Position numbers: made by a program. 28,795 bases of DNA, from NCBI GenBank assembly GCA_027339965.1, contig DAHWNL010000063.1, forward strand, positions 1-28,795, read 5' to 3'. Shown piece by piece: positions 11,977 to 14,900 of this stretch (within the stretch, counting starts at the first letter, position 1; each line of letters starts with the position of its first letter). Source of the DNA: Granulicella sp. Lineage in GTDB: Bacteria > Acidobacteriota > Terriglobia > Terriglobales > Acidobacteriaceae.

Positions 11977-14900
11977 TAAAGCAGTTTCAGTGTAAGGTGT
12001 ACCCAATGCCTCGACTTCCATGGTATGGGCGTTTTCATTGGGGAAAACGCCCATGGAGGTCGAAGCGTCGCGTTACACCTGCACTGAAAGCGCTTTAGCG
12101 GCCCGATCCGCTTTTGAAGACCGACCTCTGGACGCAACAAGGGCGAGCCATTCCGGCTCGCCCTTGTTGCATGTTGTGAGCCTCGGGCGCGAAGCTTCCG
12201 AGCCGGGGATCCGGCCGTCCGTTGCCACGGAGGTTGCCCCGGAGGTTGCCCCGGAGCAGAAGGCGCGGACCCAAGCGCGCCGTTGTCCGAAGGCGGAGAG
12301 AACCACCGGTAGACGGCGGAACGATATTTTAGATTGTTCCATCAAAAACTGAATGTTTCTGATTTCGAAGATGCCTAGAATCAATTGATTAGTTTTTTGT
12401 CTTGACAATCGTATTACGCTGGAACGATAATAGTGACGGTGACTATCGTCGCCAAGGAGGTTTTCAGTGAGCCGAATCATTGCAGCCAGTCTTGTTCTTT
12501 CCATGCTGACTCTATCCACGGCGGCGAAAGCCAGTGCCCCAGCCGACGGCGCCACCAACCCAACCCCGGTTCGTGTCAGTTCTGGAGCGGTCCCTCCAGC
12601 GCTGCTGGGTGCTCCGGTGCTCTACCTGCCGGACAGTACCTTGATTGATCTACTTCCCGAGGGCGCCCAGGTCGGGCTCTCGCTCACCGTCAACAAGAAA
12701 GGTCAAGCCGAGAACATCCGGGTGATCAAGACGTTCGACCCGTTTGTGGACAATCGTCTGGTTGAGGCCGTCAACCAGATGCACTTCCGTCCTGCCACCA
12801 TCGACGGTCAGCCCACCGCGGCGGACATGAATCTTGAGTTCACGGTCGCACGCTGAGGCAATGGTTCGTTCCTGCGGCCATCTCTGGGCCTGCCGTTGAA
12901 ACTGGCGGCGGGCCCTTCTCTATTTCGCGGGGAAGATTTCCAGACTCTGCAGGCGCAGCCAGGACAGCCGGAAGAGGCTTGAGAGCACGAGGCGCCGGCA
13001 ACAGCAGAGGGCGAGCCCTCTCGGCTCGCCCTCTGCTGTTGCCATCTACCTTGACGTTTACTTCGCAGCCAGCTCCGCGTTGGCACCGGCCTTGAGCGCC
13101 GCCGCCTTGTCGGTGGCCTCCCAGGTGAAGGCTTCCCCGCTGCGGCCACAGTGGCCGTAGGCCGCGGTCTGCTTGAAGATGGGACGGCGCAGGTTCAGGC
13201 TCTCGATGATACCTTTGGGCGTAAGGCTGAAGTTCTCGCGCACCAGTTCGATGAGCGTGGCTTCGGGCAGCGTGCCGGTGCCAAAGGTGTCGATGCGGAT
13301 GCTGACGGGATCGGCGACGCCGATGGCGTAGGCTAGCTGCACTTCGGCCCGGTCGGCCAGACCTGCGGCCACAATGTTTTTGGCGATGTAGCGAGCCATG
13401 TAAGCAGCGCTCCGGTCCACCTTGGTGGCATCCTTGCCGGAGAAGGCGCCGCCGCCGTGACGGCCCATGCCCCCGTAGGTATCCACAATGATCTTGCGTC
13501 CGGTGAGACCGGTATCGCCCATGGGGCCGCCTATCACAAAGCGGCCAGTGGGGTTGATGTGGTACTTGGTGTCAGCGTCCAGCAACTGGGGGGGAATCAC
13601 AGTCTGAATCACGTGCCGCAGGATATCGGCGCGGAGTTGATCGTTGCCGACTTCCTCGGCGTGCTGGGTGGAGATCACGACCGCATCCACGCGCACTGGC
13701 TTATAGTTGCTGTCGTACTCCACCGTGACCTGGCTCTTGCCGTCGGGGCGAAGGTAGGGCAGCGTGCCGGACTTTCGTACCTCGGTAAGCTTTTCGGCCA
13801 GGCGGTGGGCCAGCGAGATGGGGGTCGGCATCAGCTCGGGAGTCTCGTTGCTGGCGTAGCCAAACATCATGCCCTGGTCGCCCGCGCCTCCGGTGTCCAC
13901 GCCCTGCGCGATGTCCGGGGACTGTCGGTTGATGGTGGAGATAACACCACAGGTGTTGCAGTCGAAGCCCTTCAGGGCGTCGTCGTAGCCGATCTCACGG
14001 ACCGTCTCGCGCACCAGGGTCTGGAAGTCGACGTAGGTTTTGGTGGTAATCTCACCCGCCACGACGATCAGGCCGGTACAGGTGAGGGTCTCGCAGGCGA
14101 CCCGGCTGTACGGATCCTCGGCCAGGCAGGCGTCAAGGATGGCGTCGGAGATCTGATCCGCGATCTTGTCGGGATGACCTTCTGTGACAGACTCGCTGGT
14201 GAAGAGAAAGCGGTTGGTTGTAGGCAAAGCGGAATGCTCCTTAGCTCAGAATAGCCGGACACGCCCCATGGGAGGCGGAGCGCCCGACGACCGGTTCCGA
14301 CTCCTGCCGCAGGCCGCGCCGTGGGAAGGAGCCCTGGAAGATGCCAGGCAGGCAGGGGTAGCAGTAGTCTCCGGTCGTTCCCCCTAAGACGGCGAAGAGC
14401 CGCAGGGTTGGAACCCCTCTATTCTACCCGCAGACCCATCAGGCAAGCCGAAGGAGAAACAGCGAGTGGAAGAAAATCCGGTCTGAAGAGCGCGGATGCG
14501 AAGATAAGATGCGTTCGCGGAACCTGCCTTCAGACGCCGTGCGCGCTCAGACCGGCCGCAGGCGCAGCATCTGCGCGGGCAGTTCGGAGCGCAGCGCCAG
14601 CAGGGTTAAAAACGCGGCCAGCGCCCAGGCCAGGCTGCCCCCCGCGATGATCAGCAGAGCTTCCAGATGTCCCCCGAGACGTGTCGCCAGTTCGGGCAGC
14701 CCATGAGCGAGTGCTTGCGCCAGAACATGGGCGCCGGCGTTGCTGGCGGCAAAGGCGATGAGCGCCGCAGCCAGCGCCCGTCCCAACTCGGCGAACTCCA
14801 GATGGAGCAGGCTGACCAGCCGCTTGCGATGCAGCAGAATGGCCAGCGCGGCGGTCTGGACCAACATGCCCGCATCGGAGGCGATCGCCAGGCCGGTGAG

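Follow-up and report, generated by a model that had tools for sequence, protein, structure and literature searches.

A conserved three-hairpin leader RNA precedes metK in Granulicella and is a candidate S-adenosylmethionine sensor

Introduction

The S-adenosylmethionine (SAM) synthetase gene metK is the gene most often under riboswitch control. Among the SAM sensors, SAM-III (SMK box, RF01767) is restricted to Lactobacillales and controls metK translation. In both SAM-III and SAM-VI the Shine-Dalgarno sequence forms part of the ligand-binding helix. The SAM/SAH riboswitch (RF01727) is a small pseudoknot of the single-hairpin type and works at the ribosome-binding site. To our knowledge, every SAM-binding fold so far has taught a new lesson on RNA-ligand recognition. 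A riboswitch class confined to Acidobacteria is exemplified by the nadA motif (class I NAD+ riboswitch), which is built from tandem bulged hairpins; gene regulation in this phylum is, as far as we know, almost unstudied.

SAM-VI (RF02885), found mainly in Bifidobacterium, is likewise described as a SAM sensor that controls metK translation (PMC6914780). In the sections of the survey that deal with these motifs, the SAM/SAH motif (RF01727) of the order Rhodobacterales is a leader of metK only and binds SAM, whereas preliminary in-line probing of SAM-Chlorobi (RF01724), a leader of metK and ahcY, gave no binding of either SAM or SAH (Weinberg et al. 2010, PMC2864571). Here we describe a structured metK leader from the acidobacterial genus Granulicella and compare it with these systems.

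Results

Architecture of the metK leader

The window, that is, the whole stretch of 28,795 nt of Granulicella DNA that was analysed, carries metK on its minus strand with murJ, a MerR-family gene, a convergent TonB_C-like gene and thiC as neighbours. The MetK product matches its three Pfam domains with E-values of 9e-45 to 2.7e-67, and the start codon is TTG (UUG) in all 79 aligned leaders. The features of the locus are as follows.

14421..14428, minus strand: −10-like box GGTAGAAT, conserved in the leaders, putative metK promoter
14377..14414, minus strand: hairpin P1, base GUUCC/GGAAC, at or beside the probable mRNA 5′ end
14289..14376, minus strand: hairpin P2, base GACCGG/CCGGUC, strands 14376–14371 and 14294–14289
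14254..14288, minus strand: hairpin P3, strands 14288–14277 and 14267–14254
14243..14253, minus strand: near-invariant pyrimidine-rich single strand (tail) UAUUCUGAGCU, 3′ of P3; UAUCUC(A) in most leaders
14237..14242, minus strand: Shine-Dalgarno sequence AAGGAG; AGGAG[C/T] in 76 of 79 leaders
13058..14227, minus strand: metK (S-adenosylmethionine synthetase), TTG start at 14227–14225; Pfam S-AdoMet_synt_N, _M and _C

From the −10-like box to the TTG codon (14227), the 5′ UTR of about 185 nt (125–240 nt in relatives, where short natural forms measure about 127 nt) forms three hairpins, P1, P2 and P3. These adjoin one another with zero-length linkers, and the tail and then the ribosome-binding site AGGAG follow. 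The genome-wide survey's note had described P2 and P3, as helix 1 and helix 2, as two adjacent helices with variable inserts, followed by a single strand and the ribosome-binding site, and this arrangement recurs in the 79 leaders. Its start of the element at 14382 cuts P1 (14414–14377) in half, and the third hairpin was missed.

P1 spans 26–59 nt across the leaders and is closed by 5 bp (columns 12–16 with 89–93 of alignment A1; 93.7% of cells canonical), with pairing kept by the variants GUUCU/AGGAC, GUCCC/GGGAC and (C)GUCU/(C)AGAC. Folded alone, its end pair closes in 73 of 79 leaders. P2 ranges from 21 to 88 nt with a highly variable interior, and 94.3% of the cells of its 6 pairs are canonical. 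The second of these is A-U in 49 leaders and C-G in 16; nine more are unpaired according to the MAFFT alignment but, by eye, form a bulged-G class that still pairs. An AUG lies inside the P2 interior in one leader subgroup only.

P3 (28–80 nt) begins with an outer helix, GUCGGG/UCCGGC, of 6 bp including two invariant G·U pairs, which is identical in all 79 leaders. On the 3′ strand, a bulge of two nucleotides, any base followed by an invariant G, separates it from an inner helix in which each of the 5 pairs shows two-sided changes; one pair, for instance, is C-G in 62 leaders and U-A in 14, and another is U-A in 35 and C-G in 27. The loop is variable. The end pair of the isolated P3 segment closes in 79 of 79. 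The continuous 11-pair helix proposed in the note is better replaced by this arrangement of 6-bp outer helix, bulge and covarying inner helix: in the continuous register two positions pair in only 29 and 15 of the 79 leaders, as against 75–78 of 79 in the bulged one.

Most invariant bases are the Watson-Crick paired ends of the helices; the bulged G, the two G·U pairs and the tail are invariant as well. The leader core contains no closed multi-helix junction, no closing helix and no evident pocket. A closing helix P0 between AGGUAG of the −10 box and CUAUCU of the tail was considered and rejected: 15 leaders carry AGUAG or AGUAA at the position of AGGUAG with the tail unchanged, leaving an uncompensated A·C mismatch, and the box is also kept at loci that lack the motif. 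Two further alternatives, pairings among the three CCGG copies and pairing of the P2 5′ strand with the P3 5′ strand, were judged by eye to be good in one subgroup only and unconserved, and were discarded.

Selection for structure

Canonical pairs fill 95.9% of the 1737 pair cells (22 pairs, 79 leaders), and two-sided, compensatory changes occur in 9 of the 22 pairs (102 cells). The covariation score of 0.236 is reached in none of 500 shuffles (0.147 ± 0.006), and sliding the partners lowers it to 0.093 or less. RNAalifold recovers the same three helices unguided, and in free single-sequence folds P1, P2 and the outer helix of P3 exceed a probability of 0.5 in 63, 57 and 56 of the 79 leaders, respectively. 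In addition, 31 of 55 core columns are invariant among 29 leaders, compared with 2 of 30 fourfold-degenerate metK sites at the same loci. Compared with dinucleotide shuffles, the folding energy shows no excess stability (z = +0.37 and +0.13). Folding energy alone gives no signal; support for the leader structure is comparative. The weak covariation noted for 26 leaders gives way to a clear signal in the larger set, and the accompanying view of paired strands with hardly any variation is borne out only for the 6-bp base of P3 and two pairs of P2.

A covarying 5′ UTR structure in front of a gene tied to the presumed ligand, one generic mark of a riboswitch, is present here. Taken as a comparative sequence signal, the conservation gives good support to a conserved cis-regulatory structured RNA, and we hold it very probable that the element is a structured cis-acting leader of metK.

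Because the lengths of the hairpins fall in all three reading phases (79 leaders), the leader region is non-coding. A conserved short ORF, as expected for leader-peptide attenuation, was sought in the leader and not found, the insert lengths occurring in all three phases. Plus-strand ORFs that overlap the leader have no Pfam match.

The promoter-like box and the 5′ end

TAGAAT at 14426–14421 on the minus strand forms the conserved −10-like box upstream of the leader, and TA[GA]A[AG]T is found in all 78 leaders examined. P1 begins 6 nt 3′ of the box in 65 of these 78 and 6–7 nt in 72. The same box precedes nine motif-less metK loci of the genus, and the matching place in other genera holds TGGTAnnnT instead. 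There is no conserved −35 element upstream of the box. A consensus promoter scan returned no site, and for that reason the role of the box as a promoter is put forward as putative; transcription probably starts a few bases 3′ of TAGAAT.

Tail and ribosome-binding site

Tail columns 284–289 of the alignment are invariant or conserved above 90%, and the tail has a mean unpaired probability of 0.60. In 75 of the 79 leaders P3 ends 24–26 nt before the start codon; the Shine-Dalgarno sequence sits 12–17 nt past the structured core. As judged from sequence, this fixed spacing is compatible with steric control of translation. In partition-function folds of the 79 leaders, the partners of the Shine-Dalgarno sequence are mostly local and weak, being UCUC of the tail or CUUU at the start codon, and the core holds no conserved anti-Shine-Dalgarno strand. 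No terminator-like site or U run lies 3′ of P3.

Distribution

A covariance model of the 3′ half of the leader alignment, R1, has a single match in this genome, at metK, with 73 bits. In the genus it yields 82 matches in 81 of 101 genomes, or 81 of the 94 that have metK. All 82 lie on the metK strand directly upstream of metK and of no other gene; they reach at most 5 nt into the MetK match or stop at most 34 nt short of it. The motif is absent from the other 13 metK-bearing genomes, and the nine motif-less loci of the genus that were inspected have different leaders behind the same box. Outside the genus, R1 is found in none of 149 family genomes and in none of 150 phylum genomes. When the metK upstream regions of 29 other genera and of the nine motif-less loci were scored with R1 for weak homologues, the best score was 16.6 bits (E = 0.13), partly due to the Shine-Dalgarno and start region, and none was accepted. 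Both the single match in this genome and the confinement to the genus among the family genomes sampled, as stated in the survey's note, are upheld, as is its central claim of a conserved structured leader that is specific to metK and adjoins the ribosome-binding site. The frequency that it gave for the genus proved too low.

The pattern GTCGGG-N15-45-GTCCGGCTAT, run over 596 Gb of contigs, was too unspecific to inform on distribution, with at least 120 matches in unrelated phyla; 80 loci among the matches listed all score 23 bits or less with R1, set against 48–82 bits for true members. BLAST matches of the P2 interior (query nt 54–113) to second loci were treated as chance GC-rich similarity; the one inspected, in genome G048, lies inside a long ORF without Rfam or Pfam match.

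Known RNA families

The leader falls into none of the SAM and SAH classes of Rfam 15 with which it was compared (SAM-I, -II, -III, -IV, -V, -VI, SAM-I/IV, SAM/SAH, SAH and SAM-Chlorobi). When 14150–14620 was compared by cmscan with all 4227 Rfam families, the only matches at E ≤ 10 were four to sRNA or miRNA families, at chance level, and a scan at E ≤ 5 of eight other motif-bearing and five motif-less leaders gave no relevant match, in agreement with the earlier report of no Rfam hit. Genome-wide, the best RF00521 and RF00162 scores (17 and 22.4 bits) are located elsewhere and lie below their cut-offs. We found no description of the motif in the full-text literature, a scope that leaves aside subscription-only papers and supplementary motif lists such as those of the Breaker-laboratory surveys (PMC8632094, PMC6429828).

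Discussion

The reading that we favour is one of cis-acting translational control in which the effector is most likely SAM and the leader would represent a new structural class of SAM riboswitch; we put its probability at roughly 0.4. It is favoured a priori because other conserved leaders found only at metK bind SAM, as the sections of the survey on the SAM/SAH motif report for that example (PMC2864571), and because this metK carries no known SAM riboswitch. The leader would constitute the entire 5′ UTR of a monocistronic metK mRNA, with transcription from just 3′ of TAGAAT and immediate folding of the RNA into P1, P2 and P3. Together, the three helix bases and the tail would build a compact core for the effector to recognise. 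In the bound state the core may hold the tail, where the 30S subunit probably lands, or may stop the ribosome at the upstream border of its site, and effector binding would reduce MetK synthesis. Stated in full structural terms, a proposal of about equal probability, the element would be a SAM (or SAM/SAH) riboswitch class of one genus with an open four-way junction whose fourth arm is the tail, and it would control translation from the metK UUG codon by sterically capturing the site where the ribosome lands, with no anti-Shine-Dalgarno helix. Several observations stand against this reading: among the genomes searched the motif occurs in a single genus and serves a single gene, 13 of 94 genomes do without it, its folding stability is not in excess, the core shows neither a closing helix nor an evident pocket, and neither a conserved anti-Shine-Dalgarno helix nor a terminator was found.

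Leaders that bind a protein or stabilise the mRNA are serious rivals to the SAM reading. The leader could be read by a protein that binds RNA, be it a dedicated regulator, a global factor or MetK itself, which would contact the invariant helix bases, the tail and the bulged G and repress or activate translation or decay of metK mRNA. Most of the invariant bases are found in helices and not in junctions or loops, an arrangement uncommon among aptamers and suited to a protein that reads helix bases; helix ends, G·U pairs and a bulge are typical features of protein recognition, and the tips are variable. Confinement to one genus and one gene is what a lineage-specific protein-RNA pair predicts, and no conserved switching helix was found. 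No candidate protein presents itself, however, and the neighbours murJ, the MerR-family gene, the TonB_C-like gene and thiC suggest none. As to MetK itself, autoregulatory leaders are usually those of RNA-binding proteins, and we do not know MetK to be one. We regard control by a protein as somewhat unlikely. The SAM-Chlorobi metK leader, reported in the corresponding part of the survey to bind neither SAM nor SAH (PMC2864571), fits control by a protein and is a warning for the leader described here.

A leader with no effector at all is less credible still. Its 5′ hairpin and stacked helices would block 5′-end-dependent decay, and its unstructured, AU-rich landing site would aid a weak UUG codon. 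P1 lies so close to the box that the mRNA would open with a hairpin, the UUG start is universal among the leaders with the pyrimidine-rich tail at a fixed distance, and no alternative fold was found, all of which such a constitutive leader would explain. Stabilising hairpins, however, need no set of about 30 invariant bases, two fixed G·U pairs and a fixed bulge, and synonymous sites in the same genomes are mostly randomised. Moreover, the leaders that follow such a promoter at the nine inspected loci of the genus and in other genera are quite unlike this one. We consider a leader without effector improbable. Another alternative is a target for RNA in trans, in which the helices represent a four-way junction minus one arm and a small RNA pairs with the tail and perhaps the Shine-Dalgarno sequence: the zero linkers between the hairpins and the invariant single strand that directly follows them would be accounted for, but 10-mers of this genome complementary to the tail and Shine-Dalgarno sequence number 65 against about 120 expected by our own estimate, and the longest complementary run, 13 nt, is at about chance level. 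Nor does the upstream AGGUAG serve as the missing arm, given its A·C mismatch in 15 leaders and the retention of the box at motif-less loci. This makes a trans-acting RNA very improbable. Operators for a transcription factor or parts of a promoter, acting as DNA, might leave the short CCGG palindromes seen in the conserved blocks 3′ of the promoter-like box. The distances between the blocks vary by tens of bases (21–88 and 28–80 nt), however, and compensatory changes keep the hairpin potential of variable stretches, a signal that is lost in the slid-partner controls, so that a DNA-level element is scarcely credible.

With its boundaries, structure, invariant positions and short variants defined, the leader can now be put to the test. 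Should it bind SAM, it would present a new fold with an unusual, linker-free layout of three helices; should it bind none, it would mark an RNA-binding regulator of the methyl cycle.

The leader resembles the SAM/SAH riboswitch (RF01727), as treated in the relevant part of its description, in occurring only directly upstream of metK in one lineage (PMC2864571). It differs in having three abutting hairpins over 125–240 nt, and the RF01727 model has no match; because the hairpin loops are hypervariable, a pseudoknot between loop and tail is unlikely here. Unlike SAM-III and SAM-VI, whose Rfam models (RF01767 and RF02885) also fail to match, the leader places its Shine-Dalgarno sequence 12–17 nt past the core and has no conserved anti-Shine-Dalgarno strand. 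With SAM-Chlorobi it shares, as far as the consulted account of that motif goes (PMC2864571), a lineage-specific structured metK leader, an adjacent promoter (a strong one in SAM-Chlorobi, a putative one here) and an unproven ligand. In contrast to the metK-ahcY operons of Chlorobi, metK stands alone in Granulicella, and sequence and structure are different, with no Rfam match. The nadA motif differs from the leader in gene context and consensus and provides the precedent for a class found only in Acidobacteria, of which this leader, if it binds SAM, would be the second.

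Architecture of the metK leader

The 5′ leader of metK is a lineage-specific structured element and a riboswitch candidate that is uncatalogued in Rfam. Three hairpins, P1, P2 and P3, abut directly with no linker nucleotides, and P3 is followed by the near-invariant single strand UAUCUC(A), the Shine-Dalgarno sequence AGGAG and the start codon UUG, the last in all 79 leaders of the full alignment (A1). The interval 14225-14382 proposed in the genome-wide survey's note contains P2, P3 and the tail, while its upstream edge cuts through P1.

Features of the metK locus and its neighbours
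9960-10057, plus: TPP riboswitch RF00059 (68.6 bits), directly 5′ of thiC
10114-11979, plus: thiC (Pfam ThiC_Rad_SAM)
13058-14227, minus: metK ORF, TTG start, three SAM-synthetase Pfam domains
14242-14237, minus: Shine-Dalgarno sequence
14253-14243, minus: tail
14288-14254, minus: P3
14376-14289, minus: P2
14414-14377, minus: P1
14426-14421, minus: box
14547-16553, same strand as metK: murJ (MurJ-family flippase), next gene upstream of metK
16285-16962, minus: MerR-family regulator gene, upstream of murJ
17067-18410: Old Yellow Enzyme-type flavin oxidoreductase gene, adjoining the MerR-family gene

All motif-bearing loci share the box aGGTAGAATa, and the first paired hairpin base lies 6 nt past it in 65/78 leaders and 7 nt past it in 7 more. 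P1 (26–59 nt) has the base GUUCC/GGAAC and P2 (21–88 nt) the base GACCGG/CCGGUC. In P3 (28–80 nt) the outer helix GUCGGG/UCCGGC, including two G·U pairs, is the same in 79/79 leaders; a 2-nt bulge on its 3′ side, at the position placed by RNAalifold, carries an invariant G as its second base, and the inner helix is variable and covarying. From the end of P3 to the start codon the distance is 24–26 nt in 75/79 leaders.

The interior of P2 has features of its own. About 35 leaders (L017-L056, L081 and L082, metK upstream loci) carry extra conserved strands, GCCAARUCUGC and GCGUGUGCGGYG (A1 columns ~117–135 and 176–190), flanking a variable hairpin; these lie outside the common core, as they are absent from leaders with a short P2. 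In ~20 genomes of the genus, BLAST with the P2 interior of the present leader (14308-14367) also matched a second locus at 75–84%. The one inspected (G048:C1:1592165-1592207) falls within an ORF of 520 aa that matches nothing in Pfam or Rfam, and chance GC-rich similarity is therefore the probable explanation of these matches.

Downstream of metK, both the small TonB_C-like ORF and thiC run in the opposite orientation, which makes metK monocistronic; the TPP riboswitch with thiC is an ordinary, already known arrangement. Within the 319-nt gap between metK and murJ, a long stem past the murJ stop codon (~14480-14540, minus strand), followed by GGAUUUUCUU, is present in the MFE fold and looks like a murJ terminator. 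The terminator scan did not flag it; such a predicted terminator would put metK on a separate transcript. The MerR-family gene has no evident link to metK.

Comparative evidence for three helices

The aligned sequences argue strongly for the three-helix structure. In A1, which leaves out L009 (leader cut by the contig end) and L048, canonical pairing holds for 95.9% of the 1737 cells of 22 pairs, and both sides change in 9 of the pairs (102 cells), these counts being of related sequences and not of independent events; the haplotypes number 16 for inner P3 and 24 for P1. The covariation score of 0.236 was reached by none of 500 column shuffles (0.147 ± 0.006) and fell to 0.093 or below when partners were slid by 1–3 columns. 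At the second P2 pair, 49 leaders have A-U and 16 have C-G; the 14 non-pairs comprise five leaders with a U·U mismatch and nine unpaired according to the MAFFT alignment, which by eye form a class with one bulged G and keep the pairing. The inner P3 pairs exchange likewise: C-G 62/U-A 14, G-C 64/C-G 7/U-A 7, and U-A 35/C-G 27. Without a supplied structure, RNAalifold returned the same three helices, with 19 pairs of which 7 show a compensatory change.

Free folds of single sequences recovered P1 in 63/79, P2 in 57/79 and outer P3 in 56/79 leaders at a probability above 0.5, and segments folded alone closed the end pair of P1 in 73/79, of P2 in 65/79 and of P3 in 79/79. Folding energy compared with shuffles gave no signal (z = +0.37 and +0.13). 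Among 30 loci with a full metK, just 2 of the 30 fourfold-degenerate sites in codons of conserved metK residues are invariant, against 31 of 55 leader core columns in the 29 of those loci that belong to A1. Hairpin lengths spread over all three phases and the plus-strand ORFs overlapping the leader have no Pfam match, so the region is not coding.

Distribution and association with metK

Searching with residues 1–150 of MetK located metK in 94/101 genomes of the genus, and a 241-nt BLAST query around the metK start matched 66/101. Upstream DNA was examined for 90/95 metK matches, the other five lying in G023 (unpublished), G036 and G086 (contig ends), G037 and G080; a diagnostic tail 10-mer (≤1 mismatch) occurs in 81/90 loci and is missing from 9. 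The 3′-half alignment A2 is the A1 set minus L063, and the covariance model R1 (85 positions, 9 pairs) likewise covers the 3′ half. The only R1 match in the present genome is the one at metK (73 bits), and the genus yields 82 matches in 81/101 genomes, so that the motif is present in 81/94 metK-bearing genomes. All 82 lie on the contig and strand of metK, with 3′ ends from 5 nt inside to 34 nt before the MetK match.

In wider samples, R1 picked out just two members of a family set of 151 genomes (142 genera), this genome and another of its genus, and in a phylum sample it matched none of the 150 further genomes (105 other genera); as both were run with stricter Infernal filters, the outcome reads as not found in those searched. 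The unpublished G023, G102 and G125 enter genome tallies only, as single units, possibly including these two samples. Applied directly to metK loci from 29 genera besides this one and to nine motif-less loci of the genus, R1 reached at best 16.6 bits.

The motif-less loci (L051, L054, L055, L059, L066, L073, L079, L084 and L087) keep a GGTAGAATA-type −10-like box and a long leader, of at least two other types. A repeated GACUU(U)GCCGCAA-type unit is common to L066, L079 and L087, another leader, ending in UGGAGGAAC or AGGAGGAAC, to L054, L055, L059 and L073, and L051 retains the remnant GCUAUCUCA. Rfam scans of five (L051, L054, L066, L073 and L084) gave no match. In other genera metK has a TTGC-N17-TGGTAnnnT promoter and unrelated leaders of ~100–130 nt. 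Seven loci from other genera of the family (L099, L100, L113, L115, L117, L122 and L123) carry a C-rich YCCCGCCRGAC-type block ~40–60 nt before the start, a possible second metK leader motif at the level of the family.

Mode of control and candidate functions

The element is an RNA, is specific to metK and keeps a constant spacing to the ribosome-binding site. Control by transcription termination is unlikely, because the terminator scan found no terminator-like site and no U run follows P3. The survey's note had proposed a riboswitch that masks the ribosome-binding site. Shine-Dalgarno bases indeed have a predicted mean unpaired probability of 0.26, and so spend roughly three quarters of their time paired, with the adjacent tail UCUC or with CUUU running into the start codon; since these local partners include no conserved core strand in the leader folds, the masking idea has no conserved helix behind it. 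The GGAG of the Shine-Dalgarno sequence and the CUUU at the UUG start (14225-14242) are predicted to form a weak local hairpin, which may damp translation by itself. What remains would be a steric or tail-capture model, in which a compact core of invariant helix bases, bulged G, fixed G·U pairs and tail would border the 30S site on its upstream side, stabilised by an effector.

That the G·U pairs and the bulge are fixed suggests that a ligand, metal ion or protein recognises them specifically. We favour a metabolite-sensing switch, tentatively, at a probability of about 0.4–0.45. A leader bound by a protein, which that recognition would also suit, is somewhat unlikely, and a constitutive leader serving as a stabilising or landing-pad structure is less likely still. 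Readings that invoke a trans-RNA or the DNA level are, even taken jointly, improbable.

A SAM riboswitch would fit the standing of metK as the classic riboswitch-controlled gene. Against it count the very narrow range, the mostly helical location of the invariant bases and a leader structure with neither a closed junction nor a switching helix. The 319-nt metK gap gave only four chance-level sRNA/miRNA matches against all 4227 Rfam families (E ≤ 10), and a full-text literature search found no description of the motif. Being cleanly defined and directly testable, the element is of moderate-to-high interest. Among known systems, the metK leaders of PMC2864571 offer a comparison in each direction: the SAM-Chlorobi leader, for which preliminary tests showed no binding of SAM or SAH, counts against a SAM riboswitch, and the SAM/SAH motif counts for one as a validated precedent for lineage-restricted, metK-only motifs.
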